Origin: an uncultured delta proteobacterium
GTDB lineage: Bacteria > Desulfobacterota > Binatia > Binatales > Binataceae
DNA length: 64,000 nucleotides
Reading direction: 5' to 3'
NCBI GenBank assembly: GCA_963699705.1
Contig: CAVOUW010000001.1
Span: forward strand, 141,572-205,571
Below, piece by piece: positions 3,255 through 53,940 of this stretch. Below the pieces are notes generated by a model that was not told the DNA's origin, made no database searches, and saw nothing but the letters and a program-made list of their open reading frames with translations. A program made the position numbers and the translations under genes. Every line of letters begins with the position of its first letter. Position 1 is the stretch's first letter.

Positions 3255-3312
3255 GCGGGATGCCAGCAACCTAACCCCTAACCCCTTCCCGAGCGGAAGG
3301 GGAACAAGAAAG
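3255..3312. repeat. module-A palindromic repeat (CCTAACCCCTAACCCCTTCCC-gagc-GGAAGGGG), reverse orientation
   Basis: A stem CCCCTTCC/GGAAGGGG of 8-9 bp is followed by TTAGGGGTTAGG on the opposite strand. The same unit recurs at 9975, 13025, 26395, 31478, 41850, 44828 and 53860. Confidence 0.8.
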
Positions 3313-3339
3313 AAAGGGCTCTTGAGGGACTCCGGACTC

Positions 3340-4462
3340 TTATCGGCGGACGCGGGCCTCTAACAGCGAGTCTTCGCCGACTGGGCGCGCGGACAAATCC
3401 GTGAGCGCGAGTGCGTCTCGCACGCTGCGGGATTTCATCCCTTCGATCGCTTGCAGGCCGGCGCCGAGGATTTTCGGGGCTACAAAGAACGCGATGCGAT
3501 CCACGATACCCGCGCTCAGAGCCGAGCCGGCGAGATTTGCGCCGCCTTCGATCAAGACGCGGCACCATCCGCGATGCCCAAACTCGAGCATCAGGCGATC
3601 CAGCTCGATGATGCCGCTGTGGGTCGCGACGGCGATGACCTCGACGCCGCGTCGCTCAAATCTCTCGCGGGCACGCGAGAGATTTGCCGGCGTGGTCACC
3701 AGGATGGTGACCGCGCGCGAGCGCTGCCGATACACCCGCGCGGTCGGCGCGGTGCGGAGTTGCGCGTCGATGACGACGCGCACCGGATCGCGGCCGCCGG
3801 CGACCCGCGCCGTCAGGCGCGGGTCGTCGGCGATCACGGTGCCGGCGCCGACCATAACGGCGTCGCATTCGCGACGCCATCGATGGACCAGTTCGCGCGA
3901 TTCGCGCGAACTGATCCATCGCGAATCGCCGCTGGCCGCGGCAATTCGCCCGTCTATCGACATCGCCAGCTTGAGGATGCCCAGTGGGCGTCCGAGTCGT
4001 AGCCGCGTGATGAATCCTTCGTTCAGACGGAGCGCTTCGCCTTCAAGCACTCCAACTCGTTACCGCGATTTTCGCGCCCTTGAGGATTGCGATTCCGCTT
4101 CCGCTGACGCGGGGGTCCGGATCAACGCATCCCACGACGACGCGCTTGACCTTCGCCGCGACCAGAGCGTTCGCGCACGGCGGCGTCTGTCCGAAATGCG
4201 CGCAAGGCTCGAACGACACGTACGCGGTCGCGCCGCGCGCGAACGCGCCCGCCTGCGCGAGCGCAACCGTCTCGCCGTGCGGACGCCCGCCGACGCCGGT
4301 GACACCGCGCCCAACGACTTTGTCGCCGCGCACAATCACGCATCCTACCGACGGATTTGGAGTGGTCAGCCCGAGTTGTTCCTGCGCCAGCGCGAGCGCC
4401 TCGCGCATGTAGCGCTGGTCCCGAATCGCGGCCGAATCAGGCGCCGTTGCCTTTCTTTTCAC
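3340..4462 (-). pseudogene. ribD: riboflavin biosynthesis RibD (deaminase plus reductase) interrupted by a +1 frameshift near 4043-4050, or an assembly indel
   Basis: Deaminase ORF 4043..4462 (HGETVALAQAG...VSFEPCAHFGQTPPC, a CDA zinc motif) ends ...AKIAVTSWSA at TGA. Reductase ORF 3340..4050 (GTG start; ...LKLAMSIDGRIAA...) is in the next frame and overlaps by 8 nt. Removing one nucleotide near 4048 restores a continuous linker IAVTVGVLEGEALRLNEGF. This matches the canonical fused RibD linker (E. coli-type ...IEVVSGVLEEEARALNRGF..., recalled from memory). Confidence 0.8.
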
Positions 4463-4940
4463 CGGCGCGGGAGGTAGGCGCTTGCTTGCGTTGATTGATG
4501 AGGTCTTCGAGTTCGTGCATGAACTCGTCGATATCTTTGAACTGGCGATAGACCGACGCGAAGCGCACGTACGCGACCTGATCGATCTTGTGCAACTCGT
4601 TCATCACCGCCGCACCAACCGCGCTGCTGGGGACCTCGCGTTCGCTCTGTTCGGTCATCGCGGTCTCGATGTTGTTGGCGATCTGCTCGATCGTTTCCAT
4701 CGAGACCGGCCGTTTCTCGCATGCGCGTTTGAGCCCGGCGATTATCTTGGCGCGGTCGAACGGTTCGCGGCGATCGTCTTTCTTGACGACCATCGGCGCC
4801 GCTTCCTCGACCCGCTCGTACGTAGTGAAGCGACGCTTGCACGACCCGCACGCGCGCCGACGCCGAATCAGCATGCCATCGTTCGCGAGCCGCGAATCGA
4901 TGACGCGATTTCCACGATGGCGGCAGAAGGGGCACCGCAT
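4437..4940 (-). CDS. nrdR: transcriptional repressor NrdR
   Basis: 167 aa. [17 protein letters not shown]...[16 protein letters not shown] is the NrdR zinc ribbon, and it is followed by an ATP-cone. Confidence 0.92.
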
Positions 4941-9962: not shown

Positions 9963-9969
9963 CCAACTC

Positions 9970-10020
9970 TTAAATCCGGTTCCCCTTCCCGCGCGGGAAG
10001 GGGTTAGGGGTTAGGTTCTT
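9970..10020. repeat. module-A palindromic repeat (GGTTCCCCTTCCC-gcgc-GGGAAGGGGTTAGGGGTTAGGTTC)
   Basis: A 9-bp perfect stem with a 4-nt loop sits between the convergent GH1 and nth genes. On the opposite strand it supplies the last codons (EPNP) and the TAA stop of the nth ORF. Confidence 0.85.
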
Positions 10021-10684
10021 TGCGCCGCACCTTCCCCACGCCAATCCGCGGGCAATCGTTCGCGAATGCGCACACCTCGCACTGCGGCTTGCGCGCGATG
10101 CAAATCTGCCGGCCGTGCAGGATCAGCCGCATCGAGAATGGCGTCCAATCTTTCGGCGGCAGGATTTTCTGCATGTCGATCTCGATCTTCGCGGGATCAG
10201 TGTCCTTCGTGAATCCCAGCCGATACGTCAGCCGGCGCACGTGCGTATCGACCACGAACCCCGGCCGGCCGAAAACATGCCCGAGGATCACGTTCGCGGT
10301 CTTGCGCCCCACGCCCGGAATTTTCACCAGCGCGTCCATCTCGGACGGAACCTCGCCGCCGTAATCCTCGACAATCTTCTTCGCCGCGCCCATCAGCGAG
10401 CGCGTCTTCTGCCGAAAGAATCCGGTCCTGACGATTAACTCTTCGACGTGTCGCGGATCGGCCGCCGCCATCGCGCGCGCGTCTGGATACTCTTTGAATA
10501 GTCGCGGCGTTACCAGATTGACGCCGACGTCGGTGGACTGTGCGGAAAGAATCGTCGCCGCCAGGCATTGCCACGGCGTTTCGAAATCAAGGCTGATGCG
10601 CGCCTCGGGATAGAGCTTCGCCAGCCCGCGCGAGACGCGGCCTGCGCGCTTCTTCAAATCCGCGATCGATTCGCGCGCCGCCAT
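10004..10684 (-). CDS. nth: endonuclease III (Nth)
   Basis: 226 aa. It has the HhH-GPD motif (VKIPGVGRKTANVIL) and the 4Fe-4S cluster CxxxxxxCxxCxxxxxC (CIARKPQCEVCAFANDC). Confidence 0.92.
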   Translation of the reverse strand: MAARESIADLKKRAGRVSRGLAKLYPEARISLDFETPWQCLAATILSAQSTDVGVNLVTPRLFKEYPDARAMAAADPRHVEELIVRTGFFRQKTRSLMGAAKKIVEDYGGEVPSEMDALVKIPGVGRKTANVILGHVFGRPGFVVDTHVRRLTYRLGFTKDTDPAKIEIDMQKILPPKDWTPFSMRLILHGRQICIARKPQCEVCAFANDCPRIGVGKVRRKEPNP

Positions 10685-13014: not shown

Positions 13015-13235
13015 CACGCGCGAAGAACCTAACCCCTAATCCCCTTCCGCGCGGGAAGGGGAACCAGAGAGTTTCATTTGGAGCGCGCCGCCTATCCCCC
13101 ACGCCCCCCTTTCATGAAAAGGGGAACAGAAAAGAGGCGGCGCGTTCTATCTTTCAACTTTTAACACTGGGTGCAGGGGTCACCCCTGCCGAAGGAAGCG
13201 TGAAACCCACCGCGGGTTTCACATTCAATTAGTGA
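13015..13235. repeat. composite mosaic repeat (modules A-B-C, reverse orientation)
   Basis: 13025-13065 is an A unit (CCTAACCCCTAATCCCCTTCC-gcgc-GGGAAGGGGAACC). 13085-13130 is a B-like unit (CCTATCCCCCACGCCCCCCTTTC-atga-AAAGGGGAAC). 13181-13232 is a C unit (GGTGCAGGGGTCACCCCTGCCGAAGGAAG-cg-TGAAACCCACCGCGGGTTTCA). The same three modules occur in the opposite order at 26268-26445 and 53655-53900. Confidence 0.85.
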
Positions 13236-25381: not shown

Positions 25382-26263
25382 ATGAAGACGCTCCGCACTG
25401 AGACGCGCAACGGCGTCGGTATCATCACGCTCACGCGCGCCGACGAGTACAACACGATCACGCCCGACCTTCGCGATGAGCTTGGCGACGCGATCGACCT
25501 GGCCGACGCCGATCACGACGTCCACGTAATCCTGCTGTGCGCGGAAGGTCCAGCATTCTGCGCCGGCTACGCACTCGCAGGATCGACGCGCGCGCAAGCC
25601 GGTGAAGGTTCGCGCAAGCGCGCGTGGGACTCGGTCGCCGATTACGGGATGATCTCGCAATACGTCAACGTGTACATGAAACTCTGGTACGCGCGGAAAC
25701 CGACTATCGCCGCCGTACACGGATGGTGTATCGGCGGCGGCACCGACATGGTGTTGTGCGCCGATTTGATAATCGCAGGCGAGTCCGCGTCGTTCGGCTA
25801 TCCACCGTCGCGCGTATGGGGCACGCCGACCACCGCGATGTGGGTCTATCGGATGGGCCTCGAACGCGCCAAGCGCTACCTGCTGACCGGCGACGAGATC
25901 CCCGCGCCGGAAGCCGCGCGCATCGGACTAATCCTGGAAGCGGTGCCCGACGACGAACTCGACGCGCGCGCGACCGCACTTGCCGAGCGAATGGCGCGAG
26001 TTCCCACGAATCAACTCGAGATGCTCAAGCTCCTATGCAATCACACCGCCGAAAATATGGGACTGGCGACGTCGCGGCTGGTCGGCTCGCTCTTCGACGG
26101 AATCGCCCGGCATACGCAGGAAGGCCTCGATTTCGTCGCGCGCGCACAAGCCGCAGGCTTTCGGCAAGCCGTCCGCGAGCGCGATGACCCATTCGGCGAC
26201 TACGGCTCAGGCCCGCGCTCAAAAAATCGCGCGGTCAAGAAAAGCGGCAAGAAAAAAACTTAA
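25382..26263 (+). CDS. enoyl-CoA hydratase/isomerase family protein
   Basis: 293 aa. GVGIITLTRADEYNTI...AAVHGWCIGGGTDMVLCADLIIA is the crotonase fold. Confidence 0.85.
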   Translation: MKTLRTETRNGVGIITLTRADEYNTITPDLRDELGDAIDLADADHDVHVILLCAEGPAFCAGYALAGSTRAQAGEGSRKRAWDSVADYGMISQYVNVYMKLWYARKPTIAAVHGWCIGGGTDMVLCADLIIAGESASFGYPPSRVWGTPTTAMWVYRMGLERAKRYLLTGDEIPAPEAARIGLILEAVPDDELDARATALAERMARVPTNQLEMLKLLCNHTAENMGLATSRLVGSLFDGIARHTQEGLDFVARAQAAGFRQAVRERDDPFGDYGSGPRSKNRAVKKSGKKKT

Positions 26264-26264
26264 T

Positions 26265-26450
26265 CTAATGTGAAACCCGCGGTGGGTTTCACGCTTCCTT
26301 CGGCAGGGGTGACCCCTGCACCAAGTGAGAGAAATTTCTGTTCCCCCTTTCCCTCGGGAAAGGGGGTGAGGGGGATAGGACGGGCGGAATGGTTGCCTCA
26401 ATCCGGTTCCCCTTCCCTCGAGGGAAGGGGTTAGGGGTTAGGTTGCCGGG
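26265..26450. repeat. composite mosaic repeat (modules C-B-A, forward)
   Basis: C is TGAAACCCGCGGTGGGTTTCA-cg-CTTCCTTCGGCAGGGGTGACCCCTGCACC. B is GTTCCCCCTTTCC-ctc-GGGAAAGGGGGTGAGGGGGATAGGAC. A is CCGGTTCCCCTTCCC-tcga-GGGAAGGGGTTAGGGGTTAGGTT. Confidence 0.88.
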
Positions 26451-27455: not shown

Positions 27456-27644
27456 GCCATCACCTATGCTGCTAATCGTAGCATAATGCGTGAAAACTCG
27501 TGCATGCCGTAAGTCAAATGAATGCCCCAAGAATTCGTGAAACTTTCGGTTCCCTCAGCAACATTTTAGTGCGGATGAGCTTGCGTCAGCCAGCCGAAGG
27601 TGATTTGACGCGCTCACTATTACCAAGCATTGTGCTTTGCGACT

Positions 27645-30287
27645 ATGTCGCGATTCAGCCGCCTCGAATTCCTCGCGTCCCTACCGTTATGCGTACTGAG
27701 TGTTGCGATGATATTTCTCTCCTCGTGCGGTAACGACGGCAGTTCCGCAACGTCTGAGACCGCCGGCGCGTGCGCGCCGCTGCCACCCGCCGCCAATTCA
27801 GATTTCCTGGTTCATCTGACTCCCTTCATGAACCACCTTTGCTACCAGAAACAGAACTGGCAGCATGACGCGCAGGTGCGCACCAGCGACGGAGTTCATC
27901 CATACGTCAGGGTCTGGTACTCGCCGTTGCTGTTCGACTGGATCACCGTCAAGAACCGCACCGGGCCAGTGCCCGACGGCGCGATGGTCGTCAAGGAGCA
28001 GTTTCACAGCCCAACCGATCCGTTGGTCGAATGGACCGTGATGGTCAAAGATTCGAACCTGTCGTGGGACGGATGGTACTGGGCCGACCTGGTCAGTCCG
28101 ACACCGCGGAATCCGAATGCGGTTCCGACTCCGTCGCCGGGCAGTGGATGCGCCGAGCCGCAGGTCTTTTTCAACGGCGTTGGATTGTACTGCCTGAACT
28201 GTCATGCGTCGGCGATCGCCAATTCGGGAACCTATTCGAGTACTGCTTACCTGAATCCACCGAGCGTCGCCGCGCTCGCGGATGCCTCGGCGATGATCGA
28301 TGACATGCACAACGTTTCGTCGCGGCAGTCGGCGGAGATGTCCGCGGCCGAGCAAGCTCCGATGTTCGTCAATCGCGTACCGAATTCGGTTTTCAGCAAT
28401 CTTCGATCTTTGCCGTCCGCCTCGCCGCCGTGCATGGTCTCGCAAGCATTCGATCACGTGGTCCCGGCCGCGAAGTCGGCCGGCGGCCCCGAGGAGTTTC
28501 TCACCTCTGATCAATGCGCGAACTGTCACGATGCGACCGGGACGCTCGCCGGCTTCATCCCCAACATGATCTTCGGCGGGCAGAGTCCGACGCCCGCAAA
28601 CCTCTCGCAGTTCGGCGAATGGCGTTACTCGATGATGGGCCTGGCGGGACGCGACCCGATCTTCTTTGCCCAGCTCGAGACTGAGTCAACAGTGCATGGG
28701 CATTTGGCCGGCCACGCTGACGGCGCAGCTTTCGTTCAGGACTTCTGTCTTCGATGCCACGGCGTGATGGGTCAGCGTCAATTTCATATCGATAATGGCA
28801 ACGGGCCGAACACTTTGCTCACGCGCGCCGTGCTGCAGGATCCCAAATCCAAATACGGCGCACTCGCGCGCGACGGCGTCTCATGCGCGGTCTGCCATCA
28901 TATGACCGACGATAAACTTGCCGACCCGTCCACCGACACCGGCCTGTTCAAGGTTGGCCCCGCGAGCGAAGTTTACGGACCGTTCCCATCGGACACTGAT
29001 TCCACCGGCGCGAAGACCGGCGACAGCGTCATCCCGCTACCGATGCAGAACAGTATGGGCATCACGCCGATGGAAGGTTCCCAGGTCCAGAACGCCAGCC
29101 TGTGCGCGTCGTGCCACACGATCTTGTTGCCGGTGTTCGACGCCGACGGCAATCGGGTGATGGAAAACGGTGAGCCGAAATCCGAGTATGAGCAGACCAC
29201 TTTCTTCGAATGGCTGAATAGCGGCTTCATTACTATTCCGTGCCAGCAATGCCACATGCCCGACAGCTACCAGGGCAATCCGCTGCAATTCAAAATCGCG
29301 AATATCGAGGACGATACATTCCCCGCTGTGCCGGACCATGGACCATCGACGCGCCTGCCCGACGCCGATCTGATTATGGAAGCGCGCACTCCGTATCGGC
29401 GTCATCAACTGCTCGGGATCAACCTGTTCGCACTCGAGATGTTCGATCAGTTCCGCGCCGAGCTCGGGCTTTTCAAATTCGATCCGAACTTGCCCGGTCC
29501 TTTGGCCAAGCAGATCTTCAGCCAGAAGACCGCGGTCGCCGAAGCTGTGACGCAAGCCCAGACCGGCACCGCCAACGTCATGATTCTGTCGGCGACGAAA
29601 ATGAGCGGCGCGCTGCAGGCGGACGTCGAGGTGGATAATCTCGCGGGTCATAACTTTCCCTCTGGAGTGAGTTTTCGACGCGCGTTCTTGAACTTTCAGG
29701 TGCTCGACGCCGGTGGAAACGTGCTGTGGGCATCGGGCAATACCAACTCCGACGGCGTCATCGTCGACAACTCGGGCAATCCGCTAGCTACCGAATTCTT
29801 CAGCCCGGCTCAGCAGACCTATCAACCTCATTTCTGGACGGAGAATCCAATCACCAGCGACAACCAGGTCGCGATCTACGAAGAACTGGCGACCGATCCT
29901 GAAGGCCTGCTGACGACCAGCTTTTTAAGTCTCGACCACAAGGTCAAAGACAACCGCATTCAGCCTGTGGGAAGATCGTTCAACGGCCCCAACGCCGGCA
30001 TCACGGCTCCGGTAGGCACCGGCGCCGACCCCAGCTACAAAAACGGATGCGGCTGCAGCATGGTCCGCTACGAAATCCCGCTACCCACCAACGCCGTCGC
30101 AGTGAATGCGACGCTGTACTATCAAAGCATCCCGCCCTACTACCTACGCCAACGCTCCGAAGACGCCCACGGCCCCGACACCGCGCGCCTGATCACCTTC
30201 ACAAACCAACTAAACACCAGCCAGTACCCAGAAATCGCCAACTGGAAACTGAAAATCGCGACTTCAGGACCGGTGAATATCCGATAG
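27645..30287 (+). CDS. lipoprotein multihaem c-type cytochrome (at least 6 CxxCH)
   Basis: ~880 aa. It has a signal peptide with lipobox (MSRFSRLEFLASLPLCVLSVAMIFLSSCGN). The CxxCH motifs are CLNCH, CANCH, CLRCH, CAVCH, CASCH and CQQCH. Confidence 0.85.
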   Translation: MSRFSRLEFLASLPLCVLSVAMIFLSSCGNDGSSATSETAGACAPLPPAANSDFLVHLTPFMNHLCYQKQNWQHDAQVRTSDGVHPYVRVWYSPLLFDWITVKNRTGPVPDGAMVVKEQFHSPTDPLVEWTVMVKDSNLSWDGWYWADLVSPTPRNPNAVPTPSPGSGCAEPQVFFNGVGLYCLNCHASAIANSGTYSSTAYLNPPSVAALADASAMIDDMHNVSSRQSAEMSAAEQAPMFVNRVPNSVFSNLRSLPSASPPCMVSQAFDHVVPAAKSAGGPEEFLTSDQCANCHDATGTLAGFIPNMIFGGQSPTPANLSQFGEWRYSMMGLAGRDPIFFAQLETESTVHGHLAGHADGAAFVQDFCLRCHGVMGQRQFHIDNGNGPNTLLTRAVLQDPKSKYGALARDGVSCAVCHHMTDDKLADPSTDTGLFKVGPASEVYGPFPSDTDSTGAKTGDSVIPLPMQNSMGITPMEGSQVQNASLCASCHTILLPVFDADGNRVMENGEPKSEYEQTTFFEWLNSGFITIPCQQCHMPDSYQGNPLQFKIANIEDDTFPAVPDHGPSTRLPDADLIMEARTPYRRHQLLGINLFALEMFDQFRAELGLFKFDPNLPGPLAKQIFSQKTAVAEAVTQAQTGTANVMILSATKMSGALQADVEVDNLAGHNFPSGVSFRRAFLNFQVLDAGGNVLWASGNTNSDGVIVDNSGNPLATEFFSPAQQTYQPHFWTENPITSDNQVAIYEELATDPEGLLTTSFLSLDHKVKDNRIQPVGRSFNGPNAGITAPVGTGADPSYKNGCGCSMVRYEIPLPTNAVAVNATLYYQSIPPYYLRQRSEDAHGPDTARLITFTNQLNTSQYPEIANWKLKIATSGPVNIR

Positions 30288-31469: not shown

Positions 31470-31562
31470 TATCTCAGGAACCTAACCCCTAACCCCTTCC
31501 CGCGCGGGAAGGGGGACCGGATTAATGGTTACCCCTTCTCACCCGGGAAGGGGAACCGGATT
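31470..31562. repeat. module-A repeat (reverse) plus a second related hairpin
   Basis: GAACCTAACCCCTAACCCCTTCCC-gcgc-GGGAAGGGGGACCGG is followed by TTACCCCTTC-tcacccg-GGAAGGGGAACCGG. Confidence 0.85.
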
Positions 31563-31806: not shown

Positions 31807-31893
31807 CGGGGTCTCCCTCGTTCATATTCGTTGGTCTATAGCATAACGTTGACAATCAGGGATGGCGCCCACAGAATCTCGCCGATGGATGGA

Positions 31894-32367
31894 ATGTCGA
31901 CAGTCACCCAGCTCTCGAAAAAACCTCGATTTCCCGGCCTTGTCCTGCTGGCGATAGCCTCGGCATCGCTGATCTTCGCCGGATGCGGCCTCGCTTACCA
32001 GGCTGGGACCCGAATCAAGGCGACGCGGATGTCGGATTCACTGCAGGTGGGGCAAACCTCGCCCCAAGTACACCATTCGTGGGGTGAACCGGATATCCGG
32101 ACCTATTTGCCGGGCGAGACCGAGGTCTGGAGCTACCCCTATAAGCCGAATAGTAACGATGTTACAGCCGCGCTGCTGTATACCTCGTCCAAGGACGGCG
32201 ACAAGGGGACCTTCCTCGATTTGAAGTTTGTGGAGGGTAAACTCGTCTCATGGCAGGAAGCCGAGCATACGCTGCCGCCGAAGGGGCATACCGGCATCGG
32301 TTTGGGGATAAACCAGGGGCCGATTGGGAACGGGACCCAGACGCAGCCTGGAGCGGTTCACTACTAG
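31894..32367 (+). CDS. lipoprotein with BamE/SmpA_OmlA-like domain
   Basis: It has a signal peptide with lipobox LIFAGCG, and a VGQTSPQVHHSWGEPD...EVWSYPY motif resembling SmpA/OmlA. The start is chosen among three in-frame Met codons. Confidence 0.65.
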   Translation: MSTVTQLSKKPRFPGLVLLAIASASLIFAGCGLAYQAGTRIKATRMSDSLQVGQTSPQVHHSWGEPDIRTYLPGETEVWSYPYKPNSNDVTAALLYTSSKDGDKGTFLDLKFVEGKLVSWQEAEHTLPPKGHTGIGLGINQGPIGNGTQTQPGAVHY

Positions 32368-32565: not shown

Positions 32566-34281
32566 ATGGCGACCGCGCGCAAGAGTTTCGAGGCAATTCT
32601 GCTCGACCGATCATGGGTCTCGGCCCAGGATCTTGACAAGGCGCGGCAGCGTAAAAAGCCCGGACAGGAATTGGCCGACGTGCTGGTCGAGATGGGTGCG
32701 CTGGAGCCCCAACGCCTCGCACGCGCACTCGCGCAGGAATATCGGCTGCCATTCCAGGCCCATATCGACGAAAACGCGCTCGATCCCAAGCTCGTTTCCA
32801 AGGTTCCGATCAACTACGCGAAGAAGAACCGCCTGCTGCCGCTCTCGAGCATCGACGGCACGGTGACTATTGCGATGGCCGATCCGGCCAACTTCGAGCC
32901 GCTCGACGATTTGCGAATCCTGTTCGGCGCGCAGATAAATGTGCTGATCGCGCCGGCCGAAGTAATCGCCGAGGCGATCAACCGCGCGTACGACCAGGCG
33001 TCGGCCACTTCAGCCGAGGATCTGATGATCGATCTGCAAGAAGAGCGGCTCGACGTGGTCGCCAACGAACTCGCATCGGAGCCGCTGGACTTGCTCGAGT
33101 CCGACGATTCGGCGCCGATCATCAAGCTCGTCAACGGCGTGCTGTCGCAGGCGGTCAAGGATCGCGCGTCGGACATCCACGTCGAAGTTTTCGAAAAAGA
33201 AATGGTGGTGCGCTTCCGCGTGGACGGCATGATGTACGACGTGCTGTCGCCGCCCAAGCGGTTTCAGCCCGCGATCACCTCGCGCGTCAAAGTTATGGCG
33301 GGCCTCAATATCGCCGAGAAGCGGCTGCCGCAGGACGGCAGAATCCGCCTGCGCATCGCCGGCCGCGATATCGACTTGCGCGTCTCGTCGATCCCGACCG
33401 CGTTCGGCGAGCGTATCGTGCTGCGACTGCTCGACCGCGCGCAGGCCGTGGAAGCCATCAACCTCGACCATCTCGGTTTTTCGGGAGACAATCTTCAGCG
33501 GCTCGATCGCTTAATCCGGCAGAGTCACGGGATCATCCTGGCGACCGGGCCGACCGGCTCGGGCAAATCGACGACGCTGTACGCGTGCCTGACCAGAATC
33601 AACTCGCCTGAAAAAAATATCATCACGATCGAAGATCCGATCGAGTACCAGTTGCGCGGCGTCGGCCAGATGCAAGTGAATCCGAAGATCGAGCTGACCT
33701 TCGCCAGCGGCCTTCGCTCGATACTGCGCCAGGATCCCGACGTGATCATGGTCGGCGAAATCCGCGACAGCGAAACCGCCGAAATCGCAATCCAGGCCGC
33801 GCTCACCGGCCATCTGGTATTCTCGACGCTCCACACTAACGACTCGTTCGGCGCGGTGACGCGCCTGGTCGATATGGGAATCGAGCCGTTCCTGGTTTCG
33901 TCGTCGATTCTCGCCGTGCTCGCACAGCGCCTGGTCCGCAAGCTCTGCGTCGATTGCCGCGAGCCTTACAAGGCCAGCGAAACCGAGCTCGCGCGAATCG
34001 GACTCAAGGGCGTCGATGCGGAGAACAAGATCTGCCGTCCCAAGGGATGCCGCAATTGCCGCAACACCGGCTATCGCGGCCGAATGGCGATCCAGGAACT
34101 GATGATCATGGACGACGAAATTCGCTCGCTCGTGATGCAGAACGCCGACGCCGCGACGCTGCGCCGCAAATGCACCAGCGTTGGGATGACGCTGCTGCGC
34201 CAGGACGGTGCGGCGCGCGTGTTGCGCGGCGAGACTTCGATCGAAGAGTTGCTGCGGGTCACGCAGGAAGACATCGACTAG
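32566..34281 (+). CDS. gspE: type II secretion system ATPase GspE
   Basis: 571 aa. It has the N1/N2 domains, Walker A GPTGSGKST, the Asp box and a tetra-Cys zinc motif (CVDC...CRNCRNTGYRGR). Confidence 0.9.
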   Translation: MATARKSFEAILLDRSWVSAQDLDKARQRKKPGQELADVLVEMGALEPQRLARALAQEYRLPFQAHIDENALDPKLVSKVPINYAKKNRLLPLSSIDGTVTIAMADPANFEPLDDLRILFGAQINVLIAPAEVIAEAINRAYDQASATSAEDLMIDLQEERLDVVANELASEPLDLLESDDSAPIIKLVNGVLSQAVKDRASDIHVEVFEKEMVVRFRVDGMMYDVLSPPKRFQPAITSRVKVMAGLNIAEKRLPQDGRIRLRIAGRDIDLRVSSIPTAFGERIVLRLLDRAQAVEAINLDHLGFSGDNLQRLDRLIRQSHGIILATGPTGSGKSTTLYACLTRINSPEKNIITIEDPIEYQLRGVGQMQVNPKIELTFASGLRSILRQDPDVIMVGEIRDSETAEIAIQAALTGHLVFSTLHTNDSFGAVTRLVDMGIEPFLVSSSILAVLAQRLVRKLCVDCREPYKASETELARIGLKGVDAENKICRPKGCRNCRNTGYRGRMAIQELMIMDDEIRSLVMQNADAATLRRKCTSVGMTLLRQDGAARVLRGETSIEELLRVTQEDID

Positions 34282-34305
34282 ATCCGCGTTTAAGTTTTTT
34301 CACCG

Positions 34306-35535
34306 ATGCCAGTATTTGCTTATCGAGGTCTTGGCGCCGACGGTCGCTCCGTCAACGGCGTAGTTGACGCCGACAGCGCGCGCACCGCACGCGGCAAGTT
34401 GCGCGCGTCGGGGATTTTTCCGACCGACCTCAACGAGGAGTCCAACGCCGCGCAACGCTCGGCCGCCAAGCGCGAGTGGCTGCCCTCGCTCTGGCGGCGC
34501 AAGATGCCGGCCTCGGATCTCGCGCTGCTGACGCGGCAGTTGAGCGCGTTGCTCGGCGCGGGCGTGCAGCTGGTCGATGCGCTCAGCGCGCTCGCCGATC
34601 AATCGTCGCGCGCCGCGACCAAGCGGATGCTCTCTCAAGTGCGCGAGCGCGTGCGCGAGGGCTCGTCGCTGGCCGACGCGCTGACCAATCATCGCGACGT
34701 CTTTTCAGACCTCTACATCGGGATGGTGCGTGCCGGCGAGCAGGCTGCCGCGCTCGAGGCCGTTCTTGATCGGCTGGCCGAGTACAGCGAGCGCCAGAAT
34801 GAATTCGTAACCAAGGTTCGCGGCGCGCTGACCTATCCGATCATCATGATGTGCGTCGGCACCGGAATCATGGCGTTCCTGGTGGCGTACGTGGTGCCGC
34901 AGGTCGCGACGATTTTCCAGCAGCAACATGCCGCCTTGCCCTTGGCGACGCGAATCCTGATCACCTTTTCCGGTCTCGTCACCGGCTACTGGATTCCGCT
35001 TGGCCTGCTGCTGGTCGGTATCGTCGCAGGATTCACCGCCGCGATGGCGACGCCGCGCGGCCGCCGCATCTACGACACCGCGATCCTGAAGGTGTATTAC
35101 ATCGGCCCGACCATGATTCGAATTATCTGCGCCCGCTTCGCACGGACGCTCGCAACTCTGCTCGCCAGCGGCGTCCAGTTGCTTCCCTCGCTCGACGCGG
35201 TCAAAGGCGTGGTGACCAACGGTCTGCTCAAGGACGCCGTCGAGCAGAGCCGCGAAAGTATCCGCGAGGGCCACGGCATGGCGCAGACGCTCGCGCGCAG
35301 CGGTCTTTTTCCGCCGCTGCTGATCGAGATGATCCGCGTTGGCGAGCGTTCCGGCGAACTTGAGCGGATGCTCGAGCGGGTCGCCGACAACTACGAGCGC
35401 GAAGTCTCGCACTCGCTCAGCCAGATGACCACCGTGCTCGAACCGGTGATGACGCTGGCGATGGCCGCTGTTATCGTGTTCATGATGCTTGCGGTGCTGA
35501 TGCCAATCTTCCAGCTCAACCAGTTGATGCAATGA
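34306..35535 (+). CDS. gspF: type II secretion system inner-membrane platform protein GspF
   Basis: 409 aa. Duplicated GspF domains are present (LLGAGVQLVDAL..., ...LLASGVQLLPSL...) with 3 TM segments. Confidence 0.9.
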   Translation: MPVFAYRGLGADGRSVNGVVDADSARTARGKLRASGIFPTDLNEESNAAQRSAAKREWLPSLWRRKMPASDLALLTRQLSALLGAGVQLVDALSALADQSSRAATKRMLSQVRERVREGSSLADALTNHRDVFSDLYIGMVRAGEQAAALEAVLDRLAEYSERQNEFVTKVRGALTYPIIMMCVGTGIMAFLVAYVVPQVATIFQQQHAALPLATRILITFSGLVTGYWIPLGLLLVGIVAGFTAAMATPRGRRIYDTAILKVYYIGPTMIRIICARFARTLATLLASGVQLLPSLDAVKGVVTNGLLKDAVEQSRESIREGHGMAQTLARSGLFPPLLIEMIRVGERSGELERMLERVADNYEREVSHSLSQMTTVLEPVMTLAMAAVIVFMMLAVLMPIFQLNQLMQ

Positions 35536-35573
35536 TGAATGAAAAAGTGAAAAATGCGCCGGAGGTAACTGCG

Positions 35574-36003
35574 ATGAAATCACGCCGATACAATCAGGAT
35601 GGTTTCACCCTGATTGAAATCATGGTGGTCATCCTCATCCTCGGCCTGCTCGCGACCATCGTCGTCCAGAGCCTTCGCGGCGCCGCCGACAAGGCCAAGA
35701 CGCACCAAGGCGCAGGCCGACATGGCCGAGCTCAAGACCGCACTCGATCGTTACTACCTCGACAACGGCTTCTACCCGACCACCGACCAGGGCTTGAGTT
35801 CGCTGGTTTCGCCGCCGAGCAGCGGACGCACGCCCGCCAACTACGAGGCTGGCGGTTACATCGAGCGCCTGCCGACGGATCCATGGGGCAATCAGTACTT
35901 CTACCAGAGCGATGGGAACTCCTACGCGCTGAAGTCGTTCGGCAAAGGCGGCACCGAAAGCCAGGACACTTCGGGCGTTATAGACGCCAGCCAATCGAAT
36001 TGA
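35574..36003 (+). pseudogene. gspG: major pseudopilin GspG, split by a +1 frameshift near 35700 (or an assembly indel)
   Basis: Frame 1 gives the prepilin N-terminus MKSRRYNQDGFTLIEIMVVILILGLLATIVVQSLRGAADKAKTHQ... and then becomes Arg-rich nonsense. Frame 2 (track ORF 35614..36003) gives ...KAQADMAELKTALDRYYLDNGFYPTTDQGLSSLV...GGYIERLPTDPWGNQYFYQS.... This matches the GspG body. Deleting one C in CACCAAGG rejoins them as ...ADKAKTHKAQADMAELK.... Confidence 0.8.
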
Positions 36004-36015
36004 CGGCGTTATGAA

Positions 36016-36612
36016 GTGGAGCCCGACTCAGCTTGCCCGTGCTCCATCGCGATCGCGCGCGAGCGGCGAGTCAATTTCGTGACATCCGTATCGCCCGGCT
36101 TCACGCTGCTCGAACTCGCGGTCGTGATTTTTATCATGGGCCTGATGCTGACCTTGGCGCTGCCGTATCTCGGTGGATTCCGCCAGGCGGCGCTGAAAAG
36201 CCAGGCGCGCCGGCTCGCGGGACGCGCGACTTACATGTACGACGAGGCTACCGGCCACAAACTCGTGCTGCGGCTCATCTTCGATATGGACAACAACGGC
36301 TACGCGGTCGCGCAACTCGATCCCTATGCGGTCAAGCCGGTGTTCGCGCCTGACAACAGCATGTCGGGACACCCGGTGATGTTGCCGGCGGCGATTCGGA
36401 TTCGCGACGTCACTGTCGAGGGCATCGGCACCGTCAATCGCGGCACTACCGCGACCACTTTTTATCCCGAGGGTTACGTCGATGCGACCGTGGTCCATCT
36501 CGAGGACGCATCCGGCGACGTGATGACGCTCGAAATTTCTCCGCTGACCGGCCAGGTGGCAATTATCAACGGCGACGTGATGCCCACGGGAATGCAGGTG
36601 ACCCCAAGGTGA
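36016..36612 (+). CDS. gspH: minor pseudopilin GspH
   Basis: It has the prepilin-type N-terminus GFTLLELAVVIFIMGLML. The real start is probably an internal GTG just before it. Confidence 0.75.
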   Translation: MEPDSACPCSIAIARERRVNFVTSVSPGFTLLELAVVIFIMGLMLTLALPYLGGFRQAALKSQARRLAGRATYMYDEATGHKLVLRLIFDMDNNGYAVAQLDPYAVKPVFAPDNSMSGHPVMLPAAIRIRDVTVEGIGTVNRGTTATTFYPEGYVDATVVHLEDASGDVMTLEISPLTGQVAIINGDVMPTGMQVTPR

Positions 36613-37019
36613 ATCTGCTTCGCCGCGCGCCAGGATTTACCCTGCTAGAAGTGATGGTCGCGATTGCGATCCTCGGGATCGCGCTGCTCGGCCTGCTCGG
36701 GCTGCATCATCAGAGCCTGCAATCGGTGATCCGCGCGCAGCAATCGACCCGCGCCTCGATGCTCGCGCAGGCCGTCATGACCGAAGCTGAGCTCGAGCGA
36801 TATCCGGATCTCGGCCGCAGTAGCGGCGATTTCGAATCTTCCTTCCCCCGCGAGTTCCCGGATTTCCGGTGGGAGCGCGAGGTGGCCGCATCTGGGATGT
36901 TTCCCGACGTGCGCAAGGTCAAGGTCGTGATTCGCTACGGTCCGAAGCTTTTGCAGAGCTTCTCGCTGGTCGAGTTCATGCACTCGCCGGTGCCGCCCGA
37001 TCCGAATGAGCTCCAATGA
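36609..37019 (+). CDS. gspI: minor pseudopilin GspI
   Basis: MNLLRRAPGFTLLEVMVAIAILGIALLGL. It is 136 aa and shares a 4-nt overlap with gspH. Confidence 0.8.
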   Translation: MNLLRRAPGFTLLEVMVAIAILGIALLGLLGLHHQSLQSVIRAQQSTRASMLAQAVMTEAELERYPDLGRSSGDFESSFPREFPDFRWEREVAASGMFPDVRKVKVVIRYGPKLLQSFSLVEFMHSPVPPDPNELQ

Positions 37020-37690
37020 CCAACCAACGAAAACGCATCGCCACGCATCGCGCGCCACGCGGCTTCACCCTCATCGAGATGATGCTCGCGATTGGCGTGA
37101 TGGCGCTGATCCTCGCGATGCTGGCCAGCTCGTTCAGCACCATCGCGCATAGCAAGGTGCACGCCGAAGGACGGCTGATGGTCGATCGCGAAGGACGCGC
37201 CCTGCTCTGGCAACTTACCAAGGAACTGCGCAACGCGGTGCAGACTCCGTATACCGCCAGCAACGTCGCGCTGTTCGGCGCCGGACACATGGCCGGCGGC
37301 GCGGCGGTCGATACACTCACGCTGTCCACCTTCAGCGGCGGCCATCGACGCGCACTCACCGGGATGACGCCCGAGACGATAGTTACTTACAATCTGACCG
37401 CGAATCCCGACCAACAGGGTTGGTTCGTGCTGAATCGCTCGCAGCAAAGTGGATTGCTGACCAGCAACGCCACGCCGCAAACAACGGTGCTCGCGGACAA
37501 TATACTCTCGCTTCATTTTCGCTATTTCGACGGCCAGAAGTGGGGCGAGAGTTGGGAGTCGCCCAGTCAGCCGCGCGGACGGCAGTTGCCGGTCGCAGTG
37601 GCGGTCCAGATTCAGATGGCAGCGCCCGGCGGCCGCGTGATGGACTTCGCGACCCAGGTCACCCTGCCAATGGCAATACAGCAATGGTAA
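37016..37690 (+). CDS. gspJ: minor pseudopilin GspJ
   Basis: RGFTLIEMMLAIGVMALILAML. It is 224 aa and shares a 4-nt overlap with gspI. Confidence 0.8.
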   Translation: MTNQRKRIATHRAPRGFTLIEMMLAIGVMALILAMLASSFSTIAHSKVHAEGRLMVDREGRALLWQLTKELRNAVQTPYTASNVALFGAGHMAGGAAVDTLTLSTFSGGHRRALTGMTPETIVTYNLTANPDQQGWFVLNRSQQSGLLTSNATPQTTVLADNILSLHFRYFDGQKWGESWESPSQPRGRQLPVAVAVQIQMAAPGGRVMDFATQVTLPMAIQQW

Positions 37691-38631
37691 AGCAGCTGCG
37701 AAAGAACGAGCGCGGCGTCGCGCTGCTGGCGGTTCTGCTCGGAATCGCGCTGATGACGTTGATCGTCGTGGACTTCGCCCTGACCTCGGGACTCGGATTC
37801 GTGTCGGCGGCGAATCAGGCCAACGAACTGCGCGCCAGCTACCTCTCGCGCTCGGCGGTCAATATCGGTCTCGCCCTGTTGGCGGCGGACGCGCGCGCGG
37901 ACACCAAGACGCCGACTCCGATCGACGCCTTGACCGACGTGTGGGCGGTGCCGTTCCCGCCGATGCCGCTGGAGGGCGGCACTGTCTCGTTGTCGATTGT
38001 GGATGAAGGGCGCAAGATCAATCTCAACGCGATGGTCCAGAACGGTCAGCCCAATCTGCCTGCGATCCAGAAGGTGCAGCGGCTGTTCACCATACTCGAC
38101 GTGAAACCCGAGCTGGTTCAAGGTATCATCGACTGGATCACGCCGAACAATGGCACCGGGCTTGGCGGCGGAATCGGGGATTACTACGCGGGATTAAAGC
38201 CGCCATATCAGCCGCGCTACGGCGCGATGCCGACGATTGGTGATTTGTCGATGGTGCAGGGATTCAACGAGGCAATTTTCAACCGGGTCAGCCCGTTTCT
38301 GACCGTGATGCCCGAGACCGCGGTCAACGCCAACACCGCCGCGCCGCAAGTGCTGGCCGCGCTGGAGCCGGAGTTGACCGAGGATCAGAAAATTGTGCTG
38401 GCGATAATCGACGCGCGCACGATTCGCCCGTTTACCCAGCCGACCGACATCGGAAACCTCCCGGACCTCGGTGAAATCGGACAGCGCCTTCAGAAGGACG
38501 TGATGATGCGCAGCCAATATTTTACGATTACCGGAACCGGCGTCTATGCGGGCGCGCGCAAAATCATTACCGCAACTTTCCATCGCGAGACCACCGGTAT
38601 CGGCACCCTCGCAGCTTGGCACGAAGACTAG
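37684..38631 (+). CDS. gspK: minor pseudopilin GspK
   Basis: ATG at 37684 (MVKQLRKNERGVALLAVLLGIALMTLIVVDF). It is ~315 aa with GspK-like helix-hairpin-helix-like regions. The track ORF begins upstream, inside gspJ. Confidence 0.8.
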   Translation: MVKQLRKNERGVALLAVLLGIALMTLIVVDFALTSGLGFVSAANQANELRASYLSRSAVNIGLALLAADARADTKTPTPIDALTDVWAVPFPPMPLEGGTVSLSIVDEGRKINLNAMVQNGQPNLPAIQKVQRLFTILDVKPELVQGIIDWITPNNGTGLGGGIGDYYAGLKPPYQPRYGAMPTIGDLSMVQGFNEAIFNRVSPFLTVMPETAVNANTAAPQVLAALEPELTEDQKIVLAIIDARTIRPFTQPTDIGNLPDLGEIGQRLQKDVMMRSQYFTITGTGVYAGARKIITATFHRETTGIGTLAAWHED

Positions 38632-38662
38632 GATCGAGGACTAGGGTCAATCAGGTCGCCGA

Positions 38663-40157
38663 ATGGCTCAACGAATACTTGCACTCGAGCTGGGAGCCGA
38701 TCGCGTACGCGCGGCGATGGCCGAGCGCTCGTGGAATTCCTTCACCCTCGCCGGCACCTTCGACAAGGTTCGCGCCGATGACGAGGCCGACCTGAGCGGC
38801 GCGCTCGCGCGCCTCGTGGTCGAAGCCGGGCAGCCCGATATCGTCATCTCGGCCCTGCCCGCCGACCGCGCCGTCAAACGCTTGCTCGAACTGCCGTTCA
38901 AAGACGCGCGCCGCCTGCATCAGGTGGTCCCGTTCGCTCTGGAAGAGCATCTGCCGTTCCCGGTGGATAACGGCACTGTCGCATTCACGCGCGTCGGCCG
39001 CGAGGCCGATCACACGCTGGTGATGGCCGCGATGGTGCGCAAGACCGATCTTCAGCAGCATCTTGATCTGCTGCAAAAGGCGGGACTCGATCCGAAGACC
39101 GTCACGCTCGCGCCACTGGCGCTGGCCGCGATGTTCACGCGCAACAAGAATGGCAACGGCGCCAAGCCGATGGCGCACCTCGTCGTCGAGGGCGACGAGT
39201 CGTCCACGTCGGTCGTGCTGGTCGATCTCGGAGGCACCCCGCGCGTGCTGCGTTCGATGCAAGGCGGCTTGATGATGTCCGACGGATCGGTGGTCTCCAA
39301 TGAAGCCGCCGCGCCGATTCTCAATTCGGTGCGTCAAACCCTGCTCGCCAACGGCGAAGATGCGGACCAGACCGAGGTGATCGTCGCGGGCGCGGCGGCG
39401 GCGTATCCGAAAGTGCGCGGACATGCTGTCGGACTCGCTCGCGATGTCGGTGCGCGACGGCGGCGCGTTCGACTACACCGGCATCTTCGAGGGCAGCGTT
39501 CCCAACACCGGCAAGTATTCATCGTGCCTCGCGATGCTGCTCGGCGAGATGCCGACCAAGCCGATCGATCTGATCAATTTCCGCCAGGGCGAGTTCATGT
39601 TTCGCGGACGCGTCCGCGGCGATCTCAGCCCGTTCTACACCTCGGGCATTCTCGCGGCGGCCGTGCTGGGCGTGGTCATACTTCATTTCGCGCTCGGCGT
39701 GTCCGCCAATCTTCATCGCCTCCACAAAGTCGATGCGGAAATTGCCGCAGTCGCCGGACCGGTCCTCGGCGAAACCGATCCCGCCAACGCCAAGGCGCAG
39801 TTGCAGACCGGAATCGCCAGGATGAACAAGCGGCTCAACCTCATCGGCGGCAACATGACTCATTCGCCGCTCGATACCCTGGTCGCGGTGTCGCGCGCAT
39901 TGCCGCCGCGCTTTCCAGTCCAGATGGCCGACGTAACGATCGACTCGCAAGGACTTCGCGTAACCGGACAGGCGGATTCGTTCTCGACCGTCGATCAAGC
40001 CAAGCGTGCGCTCGACCAAAGCGGCTTCTTCGGCGCGATCGAAGTCGCGCACGCGAAGGCCGGCTCCGGCTCCGATGCGAGCAAAGTTGATTTTCGGATG
40101 GACGCAAATTTCAAGGACGCGGTGCCGTCAGCTGATCGCGGCGACCTCGAAGAATAA
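38663..40157 (+). pseudogene. gspL: GspL, split by a +1 frameshift in the GCGGCGGCGGCG run near 39395-39420 (or an assembly indel)
   Basis: Frame A (38663..~39420) is the cytoplasmic actin-like GspL domain (MAQRILALELGADRVRAA...) and then ~220 codons of Arg-rich nonsense. Frame B (39423..40157) carries the TM helix (ILAAAVLGVVILHFALGV) and the periplasmic GspL C-domain. The two halves together make a normal-length GspL. Confidence 0.78.
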
Positions 40158-40801
40158 TGCTGAGAGAATGGATCGACAATTTGAGCGCGCGACTGAGGGA
40201 TTTGATCCGCCCGTGGCTCAAGCAGGCTTCGACGCGCGTCGATCCACTGATCGCACAGGCGCGCGGCCGCTACCAGAAGCTCGAACCGCGCGAACGCATC
40301 CTGGTGCAGATTGCCGGCGTACTGGTCGCGATTTTTCTCCTCTACAATCTTGTCTACACGCCGATCGTTGACCTGAGTTCCGGGCTCGAAGATAAAATCG
40401 CGCAGCGTCAACAGGATCTCGCCGACGTTCGCCGCCTCGCCGGCACCTACGCGCAGCTCAAAGCCAATCTCGCCAATGCCGAGAAGCACACGGTGCCATT
40501 GGGCAAGGATTTCTCGCTGTTCTCCGTCGTCGAAGCCTCGATGACCAAGAGTGTCGGCCGCGACAAGATTGGCTCGATCACGCCCGGCTCCGATCGTAAA
40601 CTCACCGACGGCTTCACCGAATACAGCGTGCAGTTGAAGCTCGCCAACGTGAATCTCGCGCAGTTGGTCGACGCGCTCTACGGCATCAACACCTTGCCGA
40701 TGCCGATTGGGGTCTCGAATATTCGCATCCAGCGCCGCACTCCGGACACGCATTCCTACGACGTTGACCTGACTTGTGTCGCGCTCACCAAGAACACTTG
40801 A
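40157..40801 (+). CDS. gspM: type II secretion system protein GspM
   Basis: 214 aa. It has an N-terminal TM (ILVQIAGVLVAIFLLYNLVY) followed by a periplasmic domain. It sits in the gspL-gspM-gspN position. Confidence 0.7.
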   Translation: MLREWIDNLSARLRDLIRPWLKQASTRVDPLIAQARGRYQKLEPRERILVQIAGVLVAIFLLYNLVYTPIVDLSSGLEDKIAQRQQDLADVRRLAGTYAQLKANLANAEKHTVPLGKDFSLFSVVEASMTKSVGRDKIGSITPGSDRKLTDGFTEYSVQLKLANVNLAQLVDALYGINTLPMPIGVSNIRIQRRTPDTHSYDVDLTCVALTKNT

Positions 40802-41660
40802 CGTGCGCGCGACTCCGCCGGCGCCGCAATACAATCGACCCCGCTTCCTTCGAACCGCCTACACAATCGTCGGTCTCACCCTGTTCGCCGCGTACCTGGT
40901 TTCCACCTTCCCCTACTCCCAAACTCTGACCAAGGTCCTCGCACCGATGGGCCTCGAGGTCTCCAGTGCCAGCCAGCGAGCTCACTTCCCCTTCGGCGCG
41001 CAGTTGTCGGACGTCCGCTTGATCTCGACCCGTAACGCGGCGATCAACCTGCTGGTCGAAAGCCCGGCGGTCACGATCGCGCCGTCGTATCTCTCGATGC
41101 TCACGATGCATCCTGGCGTTCGCGTGAAAGCCGCGCTCTACGACGGCGTGGTGAACGTCACGATCCGCCCCACCAAACTCGGCACCGCCATCAGCTACGA
41201 CCTCGACTCGGTGGAACTCGCGCGTCAACAGTTATTGACCATAGTGGGCGCCAGCGCCGCCGGCGCGCTCTCCGGAACCGGCAACTTGCTGCTGTCCCCC
41301 GATAACCTCGCGGAAAGCGGCGACGGCCTCCTGAGCGCCGCCGGCCTGACGTTCACCTCGGCGCTGACAAGCGCACCAATCCGCCTCGGCGACGGCCATT
41401 CAAAATTCAAACTGGATCAAGGCACATTGACAATCGAGCAACTAACAACCACCGGTGGCGACTTAACCCTAACAGCCGAAGGCACAATCCAGCTCGCCCC
41501 CGACCCTGCGCAAAGCGACCTGGCAATCCAATTCACGCTCTCAATCGCCCCCGCCGCCGCCTCTCATCTCGCACTACTACTCGCAATCCTGCCCCACCCC
41601 CCCGGCCCCCAGCCCTACCACCTGACCGGCACCCTGGCGCCCCCCGAATCAGCTAACAGC
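40776..41660 (+). CDS. gspN: type II secretion system protein GspN (the 3' end of the ORF reads into the repeat cluster)
   Basis: It has an N-terminal TM (AYTIVGLTLFAAYLV) and a periplasmic GspN-like domain. The track ORF continues to 41885, but its last ~75 codons are repeat read-through (PIPVPVGKGARGIG...PLFPLPCGKG...). The true stop is uncertain. Confidence 0.6.
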
Positions 41661-41900
41661 GAGAAACTCCAAATCACCCTTTTTCCAATTCCGGTCCCCG
41701 TCGGAAAGGGGGCGAGAGGGATAGGACAGCGCGTAGCGATGACTGTTCCCGCTGTTGCCCTTTCCTTGCGCGTTGGGATGACTTTTCCCTTGTTCCCCCT
41801 TCCTTGTGGAAAGGGGGTGAGGGGGATAGGACGACGCGATTCTGACCAAACTCCGGTTCCCCTTCCCACTATGGGAAGGGGTTAGGGGTTAGTTCCTCGA
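41640..41900. repeat. repeat cluster: a degenerate B, then B, then A modules
   Basis: 41690-41730 is CCGGTCCCCGTC-GGAAAGGGGGCGAGAGGGATAGGAC. 41795-41840 is GTTCCCCCTTCCTTGT-GGAAAGGGGGTGAGGGGGATAGGAC. 41850-41898 is CCGGTTCCCCTTCCC-actat-GGGAAGGGGTTAGGGGTTAG. Confidence 0.85.
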
Positions 41901-42141
41901 CTCTTTCGCGACGCCCACACCGTCACTTTTTACTGAACTTTTAAGCCTGATCAACCGACTCTATGTGCTGTAGTGTTGCCAATGAACCTGGCTCAACGCC
42001 CTCCATTCGCCCCACTCGCCCGAAATCGGTGAACATCCCGGTTACGGCAAAAAGCAATTTCTGACGTAACGAAGCTACCCTTGGTAGAGGACCAGTCCCC
42101 ACAACCACTACATATGGTTGAGCTGCGCCGTCGAGGGCATC

Positions 42142-44824: not shown

Positions 44825-44825
44825 C

Positions 44826-44920
44826 GCGAGGAACCTAACCCCTAACCCCTTCCCGAGCGGGAAGGGGGACCGGAAATTTTGGAGTAACCTCTTCCCATAG
44901 TGGGAAGGGGACCAGAAAAA
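44826..44920. repeat. module-A repeat (reverse) plus a second related hairpin
   Basis: GAACCTAACCCCTAACCCCTTCCC-gagc-GGGAAGGGGGACCGG is followed by CTCTTCCCA-tagt-GGGAAGGGGACC. This is the same arrangement as at 31470-31562. Confidence 0.85.
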
Positions 44921-53649: not shown

Positions 53650-53940
53650 GCCACTTTATTTAATTTGAAACCCACGGTGGGTTTCAAACTTCCTTCGGCA
53701 GGGGTGACCCCTGCACCCAGTGAAAAGAAATCGCAAAATGGCGAAGACGCCCTTTTGCTCTGAGGTTCTTCTCCTGTGTCATTCTTTTCTGTTCCCCCTT
53801 TCCTGCTGGAAAGGGGGTGAGGGGATAGGACGGGGGGAATAGTTGTCTCAAATCCGGTTCCCCTTCCCGCTCGGGAAGGGGTTAGGGGTTAGGTTCTTTC
53901 GCGCGCGCCGGAGGCGCGTCCTCTCCCGAAGGGAGAGGTG
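53650..53940. repeat. composite mosaic repeat (modules C-B-A plus D, forward)
   Basis: C is TGAAACCCACGGTGGGTTTCA-aa-CTTCCTTCGGCAGGGGTGACCCCTGCACC. B is GTTCCCCCTTTCC-tgct-GGAAAGGGGGTGAGGGGATAGGAC. A is CCGGTTCCCCTTCCC-gctc-GGGAAGGGGTTAGGGGTTAGGTTC. D is CCTCTCCCGAAGGGAGAGG. Confidence 0.88.

Follow-up and report, generated by a model that had tools for sequence, protein, structure and literature searches.

The gspL gene of the window, i.e. of the whole 64,000-nucleotide stretch of DNA that was analysed, is written in two overlapping reading frames, and this locus therefore raises the question of whether the gene is broken in the living organism, is divided into two functional parts, or is interrupted only in the assembled sequence. 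Judged from the sequence comparisons set out below, the split is most probably a consensus artefact of the assembly.

Analysis of the reading frames bore out the description given in the earlier note, namely an ORF that begins as GspL and continues into an Arg-rich tail, overlapped in the +1 frame by an ORF with the TM helix and the periplasmic domain; the ORFs themselves, Pfam, TIGR01709 (the NCBIfam GspL model) and hydropathy all agreed with it. The split is present in the sequence as ORF 38663..40090 (+ strand, 475 aa) and ORF 39423..40157 (+ strand, 244 aa), the frame of the latter being +1 relative to the former. The 5' part of the gene (38663..39421, + strand, codons 1-253, here called frame A) encodes the cytoplasmic actin-like (T2SSL/PilM-like) domain. 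Residues 1 to 252-253 of the first ORF carry a match to Pfam T2SSL (PF05134, E=5e-10, 39.5 bits, cut-off 25.5), the N half matched positions 24-145 of the 392 positions of TIGR01709, and the N part shares 95% identity with the corresponding half of contiguous homologues. The 3' part (39423..40157, + strand, codons 254-497 plus the stop, frame B) encodes the linker, the TM helix and the periplasmic GspL/PilN domain, and matched Pfam PilN (PF05137, E=2e-7, 31.3 bits, cut-off 22.8) as well as positions 223-376 of TIGR01709. The predicted single TM helix, GILAAAVLGVVILHFALGV, lies in this second ORF at 39645..39701 (+ strand; residues 328-346 of the repaired protein), and its 19 residues have the top Kyte-Doolittle mean of the protein, 2.45, followed by a runner-up of 1.18. 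Taken singly, the two halves scored 52.6 and 34.5 bits on TIGR01709, each below the cut-off of 65 bits.

The GspL-like portion of the first ORF, estimated beforehand at about 250 aa, comprises 253 codons and is followed by an out-of-frame tail of 222 codons (39425..40090, + strand), since the next stop of frame A after the junction is at 40088-40090. Arg makes up 27% of this tail vs 7% of the N part, and no Pfam or NCBIfam family was matched past residue ~160 of the ORF. The tail is what GC-rich DNA yields when it is read out of frame after the shift, and is no true protein. Exact look-ups of the two ORFs found neither on record, and the same result was obtained for the NrdR and HisG proteins of the window.

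When the two frames are joined, the repaired GspL of 497 aa matched TIGR01709 in one stretch with 82.7 bits (cut-off 65; residues 35-456, model positions 24-376 of 392), and it shows the features by which GspL is recognised: a T2SSL domain, a single TM helix and then a periplasmic GspL/PilN-type domain. Among the matches listed there were at least 120 contiguous GspL homologues of 481-499 aa, assigned to Candidatus Binatus where named, which span the repaired protein end to end with identities of up to 95.7%. The earlier note had proposed that relatives be inspected for a contiguous gspL, and such a gene, of about 495 aa, is indeed found in over 100 relatives from Candidatus Binatus. None of the collections searched yielded an intact allele from this species with at least 99% identity; among members of the closest 90% clusters, which were compared with the repaired protein, the best intact allele is the one with 95.7% identity.

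The gene lies in a T2SS operon with the order gspE-F-G-H-I-J-K-L-M-N (32566..41656, + strand), established by NCBIfam and Pfam matches. The scores were 716 bits for GspE, 446 for GspF, 141 for the repaired GspG, 184 for GspK, 82.7 for the repaired GspL and 111 for GspN, and GspM was matched as well. gspK (37684-38631, + strand) adjoins gspL on one side and gspM (40157-40801, + strand) follows directly 3' of it. The gspL of the window is thus an ordinary GspL gene in a standard gspE-to-gspN operon. Neither gspC nor gspD, which codes for the secretin, adjoins this operon. Two ORFs upstream of it, one of 885 aa (27630-30287) and one of 178 aa (31831-32367), had no NCBIfam match; the precomputed annotation of a sister assembly, ENA ERZ25039470 contig_201 (111,690 bp; loci L027, L030 and L031), gives only a faint Cytochrome_C7 match for the large one. 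Close to the C terminus of gspL an in-frame tandem GGCTCC-GGCTCC (40061-40072) encodes GSGS instead of GS. This duplication is common to the window and contig_201, is absent from every other relative, and looks like a genuine lineage-specific two-codon insertion.

The position of the break was determined from the reading frames and from alignments of proteins and DNA. Frame B is open from 39381, following a TGA at 39378, and the switch between frames must accordingly fall after 39380. The homologous proteins read ...VIVAGAAAAYPKVRG(M/L)LSDSLAMSV..., with the motif AAAAYPKVRG(M/L)LSDSL, and at the junction of the window frame A gives AAAAYPKVRG-H... and frame B gives ...D-MLSDSL. Together, the homologue motif and the two frames show that the surplus base comes after the Gly codon (39419-39421) and before the ATG that starts at 39423. 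It is therefore located at 39421..39422 (+ strand), where either the A or the C of GG-AC-ATG can be dropped to restore ...KVRG-MLSDSL.... Alignment of the DNA gave the same answer, the window reading GGACATG at 39419-39425, L001 and L002 reading GGA-ATG and 22 of 22 related loci reading GGN-(A/C)TG. A metagenome scan with a pattern that tolerated two or three bases at the site recovered a single contig, L029, which reads GGCATG and whose flanks of 30 nt on the 5' side and 60 nt on the 3' side are identical to those of the window. As a reference for the junction L029 is weak, being itself rich in indels (90.6% identical overall, with 43 gaps in 3.5 kb).

This position does not agree with the proposal of the earlier note that the junction lies in a (GCG)n tract. 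Slippage or a repeat-length error in the GCGGCGGCGGCG run (39392..39403, + strand) would be compatible with position alone, since the run is 19 nt upstream of the surplus base and frame B is already open from 39381. The run is intact, however: it encodes the conserved AAAA, for which the homologues read AGAAAAYPKVRG, and neither its length nor its sequence is different in L020, L027 and L029. Moreover, the six codons for YPKVRG between the run and the surplus base are still correct in frame A, and the alignments place the base at 39421/39422. An origin of the break in this run can be practically dismissed.

The break in gspL is not the only one in the window, as four of its approximately 60 genes are broken. 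The earlier note counted three +1 events, in gspL, gspG and ribD, and a surplus base was found for each of them, while a fourth event, a missing base in gspN, had been overlooked. In gspG (35532..36003, + strand) a surplus A at 35700 (AAG-ACGC-ACC) is absent from contig_201 and from 18 other relatives; the repaired GspG of 156 aa matched TIGR01710 in one stretch with 140.7 bits (cut-off 88.85). In ribD (3340..4462, - strand) a surplus base at about 4058 (ACG-A-GTT on the minus strand) separates the deaminase, written as ORF 4043..4462, from the reductase, written as ORF 3340..4050. Once repaired, RibD aligns without gaps with the PDB RibD structures 8dq9 and 2g6v; the protein is bifunctional in at least 120 relatives and is intact, with 355 aa, in contig_201 (P0149). 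In gspN (40776..41885, + strand) alignment with L020, L027, L026 and L003 revealed that one base is missing near 41633-41635, so that the natural TAA at 41654-41656 is read through. TIGR04411 matches only residues 26-290 of the 369-aa gspN ORF and the repaired GspN has 293 aa; the false tail (41657-41885), of about 76 residues, is translated REP-like repeat DNA and includes GKGxRGIG motifs.

A codon-usage Viterbi frame track, combined with Pfam searches of suspicious ORF pairs, revealed no further breaks among the approximately 60 genes of the window. The track caught the shifts in gspG and gspL and the long gspN tail, and it is blind to minus-strand shifts that soon meet a stop; ribD was caught by Pfam. 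Candidate nonsense splits at 17490/18432 and at 23164/23626/24529 were rejected because every ORF is a complete and distinct enzyme, and a candidate double shift at 60.7-63.1 kb was rejected because it consists of separate genes for a GFO oxidoreductase, CutA and DUF2064. Just 5' of gspH, at 36014, the window is without a G that contig_201 and L020 have, with the result that an ATG further upstream is no longer in frame and GTG at 36016 becomes the first start. This gap may be a fifth consensus error of little consequence, its effect being uncertain.

Comparison of the window with contig_201, which matches 47.1 kb of it at 98.9-99.4% identity with 347 substitutions and 21 indel events, showed that the two assemblies are broken at different places. 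contig_201 is free of the window breaks in ribD and at gspG 35700, and has its own, namely surplus bases in gspF at 35361 and in gspG at 35774 and a deletion that splits nth at 10429. The site in gspL is also seven bases long in contig_201, where it reads GGCACTG vs GGACATG in the window, and the trinucleotides concerned, CAC and ACA respectively, each hold both CA and AC, the dinucleotides carried by relatives.

The differences between the two assemblies also indicate how the DNA beyond the shift has been read. The 10 sites that differ 3' of the gspL shift lie at 39623-39917; nine of them are third-position synonymous changes in frame B, giving 9 synonymous to 1-2 non-synonymous changes for the C half. 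By the Nei-Gojobori method, dN/dS of the C half was 0.07 vs contig_201 and 0.10-0.15 vs five other relatives; for the N half it was similar, at 0.06-0.11. The half of gspL beyond the shift has remained under purifying selection. The low dN/dS and the mostly synonymous differences imply that, for as long as these strains have been diverging, the C half has been translated in frame B, a finding that contradicts an inherited frameshift as well as relaxed selection on the T2SS. The latter had been offered by the earlier note as one of two readings and has to be given up: the operon as a whole carries 46 synonymous vs 10 non-synonymous changes between window and contig_201, the gspL halves have dN/dS values of 0.06-0.15 with six relatives, and ribD and nth, outside the T2SS, are broken too.

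The same data bear on the possibility that gspL has lost its function through a genuine, recent insertion of one base, in which case the lesions in gspG and gspN would also be real and the T2SS would be decaying or loss-of-function alleles would be segregating. Such an insertion could explain why two assemblies with differences at ~0.6-1% of sites have their surplus base at one and the same codon boundary, since a shared real mutation could do so, and this is a point against an artefact. The operon of ten genes also holds three of the four breaks of the window, a mild excess that an artefact explains incompletely, and three of the four breaks of contig_201, and the failure to find an intact allele of at least 99% identity in the collections searched is likewise in keeping with a real mutation. 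On the contrary, the substitution pattern in frame B requires that selection persisted after the strains diverged, and the pattern across the whole operon points the same way. ACA and CAC would need three adjacent substitutions if the insertion had been inherited, and ribD and nth are housekeeping genes, each of them broken in one assembly only. The insertion is also opposed by the nature of the added bases, which match alternative alleles and are not slippage duplications, and by the occurrence of sporadic breaks of the same kind in 18 loci with Flye-style names and hardly ever in short-read assemblies (both described below). On this evidence a real insertion is unlikely. In a more specific form of it, the frameshifts in gspF, gspG, gspL and gspN would be real loss-of-function alleles segregating among wild populations of Candidatus Binatus, and their carriers would be 'cheater' sub-lineages that spare themselves the cost of public-goods secretion; the assemblies would have caught different mixes of short-lived alleles and dN/dS would stay low too. 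We regard this as very unlikely.

A functional split has also to be weighed, in which gspL would be expressed either as two proteins, one PilM-like and one PilN-like, or as one protein by programmed +1 ribosomal frameshifting. GspL has the architecture of a PilM-PilN fusion, and PilM and PilN of type IV pili are its naturally split counterpart; furthermore, in the window an ATG (39423) stands exactly at the start of frame B, and the C half is under purifying selection. This ATG is CTG in contig_201, however, and the first ORF has no stop near the junction but runs on through the 222 out-of-frame codons to 40090. A slippery or stop-codon shift motif of the prfB type common to both assemblies is absent, and in the 22 related loci and in more than 100 homologous proteins the two halves are fused in frame. 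A functional split of either kind is accordingly highly improbable.

The local sequence at the breaks is informative as to their origin. Replication slippage gives rise to duplications inside homopolymers of three or more bases, and neither a homopolymer of this length nor a GC-rich repeat was found at any of the four events of the window. The surplus bases, on the contrary, all fall at sites that are variable among the relatives, and every one of them equals another allele. At gspG 35700 of the window the relatives carry the alleles ACG and CGC and the sequence with the surplus base is AAG-ACGC-ACC; at gspF 35361 of contig_201 the alleles CTT and CTG correspond to CTTG; at gspG 35774 of contig_201 TAT and TAC correspond to TATC; in the gspL of L020 CCC and CCG correspond to CCCG; and at gspL 39421/39422 CA and AC correspond to ACA in the window and CAC in contig_201. 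Indels between the window and contig_201 are associated with SNPs, 7 of the 21 lying within 5 nt of one where 1.3 were expected (P ~2e-4). The idea of systematic assembly indels in GC-rich tracts, the other reading offered in the earlier note, is strongly supported as to the indels and wrong as to the GC-rich context, the sites being strain-variable.

Frameshifts of this type are common in a particular class of loci. Relatives of the window in the genome collection are mostly 'MFD...bin' MAGs with Flye-style contig names, and the 18 loci with names of this style (contig_N; 17 MFD MAGs and contig_201) have at least 19 frameshifted genes in this region, each at its own position and including ECH, gspE, gspF, gspG, gspI, gspK and gspL; shifts in gspL itself also occur in L016, L020 and L025. 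Loci of short-read type (k141/k127, JGI, Logan) have 0-1 frameshifts, the long-read and short-read classes being inferred from the names of records and contigs. For the Microflora Danica long-read MAGs only Nanopore data were used, with Flye and a single round of Medaka (PMC12313526), and Nanopore consensus indels that result in frameshifted gene calls are well documented (PMC9262707; proovframe preprint). We infer that the window derives from an assembly of the Nanopore-only Flye/Medaka type. A contig of 0.2-1 Mb encodes GspM and CutA proteins identical to those of the window, and its length suggests long reads as its source. Assembly indels are favoured by the differing breaks in contig_201, the purifying selection downstream of the shift and the sporadic shifts in loci of long-read type.

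Under the artefact that we prefer, gspL is most likely a single intact gene of 497 codons in the organism, a soil Candidatus Binatus (Binataceae), and the surplus nucleotide at 39421/39422 was probably added at the consensus step of a long-read metagenome assembly. The site would be one where strains present together carry two haplotypes, GGC-ATG and GGA-CTG or similar, that are distinguished by adjacent bases. In an alignment such a haplotype difference may be written as an insertion plus a deletion, and a consensus that keeps both alleles would then read GGACATG, as in the window, or GGCACTG, as in contig_201. The same process would account for gspG 35700, ribD 4058 and gspN 41633 in the window and for the breaks in gspF, gspG and nth of contig_201.

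Several other observations concern the relation of the window to other assemblies. Three short Logan contigs, L028 (ERR10755948), L032 (SRR28042096) and L033 (SRR28023372), are 99.9-100% identical to the window, and as they come from three other public runs the strain of the window recurs across samples; none of the three spans a break. L028 starts at window position 39783, directly after SNP 39782, which separates the window from contig_201, as might be expected if strain variation interrupts the short-read graph. The nrdR gene of contig_201 (L030 9616-9972) encodes 118 aa with the ATP-cone only, while that of the window (4437-4940) encodes 167 aa and has the Zn ribbon too. There is no indel between the assemblies at nrdR, so a substitution or the choice of another start must account for the difference in length. 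The spacer between gspN and the following hydrolase gene (window 41657-42045) consists of about 390 nt of REP-like units, the start of which is also present in L020. The same spacer in the 99.4% identical contig_201 (L027 11502-11637) and in L026 is about 137 nt long and of unrelated sequence. From this comparison the spacer appears to be a strain-variable intergenic insertion.

The REP-like units belong to a palindromic intergenic family with the core CCGGTTCCCCTTCCC-N4-GGGAAGGGGTTAGGGGTTAGG, of which at least eight copies were identified in both orientations and mostly at gene ends (3261-3316, 9968-10021, 13019-13074, 26395-26448, 31472-31527, 41845-41898, 44825-44880 and 53846-53899, on both strands). 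Often a second hairpin unit, CCCCTTTCC-N4-GGAAAGGGGGTGAGGGGGATAGGAC, accompanies the core, as at 26344, 41795 and 53795. An Rfam scan of the window gave zero matches, the REP-like family included. Two further sequences of 71 nt (26258-26328 and 53653-53723) are 90% identical to each other, each with two hairpins (GAAACCCGCGGTGGGTTTC and GGCAGGGGTGACCCCTGC), and both are found just upstream of a REP cluster. They may represent a small structured element or a terminator module.

Taken at face value, the window would give a false pseudogene call for gspL, a false 'T2SS decay', and spurious 'proteins' that are Arg-rich or derived from REP sequences. The biological weight of the case is small and its importance lies in annotation, as frameshifts in such assemblies need not be located in homopolymers or simple repeats. 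Where errors occur at strain-variable sites and contain both alleles, heuristics that locate them by repeats fail and reference-guided or read-based correction is needed.

Compared with known systems, the gene shares with the GspL family described by TIGR01709 the order of its domains and the place between gspK and gspM, and it differs in being written in two frames and in carrying GSGS. Its halves correspond to the PilM-like and PilN-like modules of type IV pili, but unlike the PilM/PilN pair the gspL junction has neither a stop nor a conserved start and the relatives are fused, so that it is no natural split. A further likeness is to the indel errors of long-read MAGs, in which, as here, single-base indels split conserved genes, several per contig and housekeeping genes included, and the breaks differ between near-identical assemblies and are almost absent from short-read ones. 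Frameshifts due to long-read indels are of the kind handled by IDEEL, proovframe and short-read polishing. The classic account of such errors stresses homopolymers, whereas the events of the window occur without a homopolymer of three or more bases, at sites polymorphic among strains, with both alleles apparently kept in tandem.
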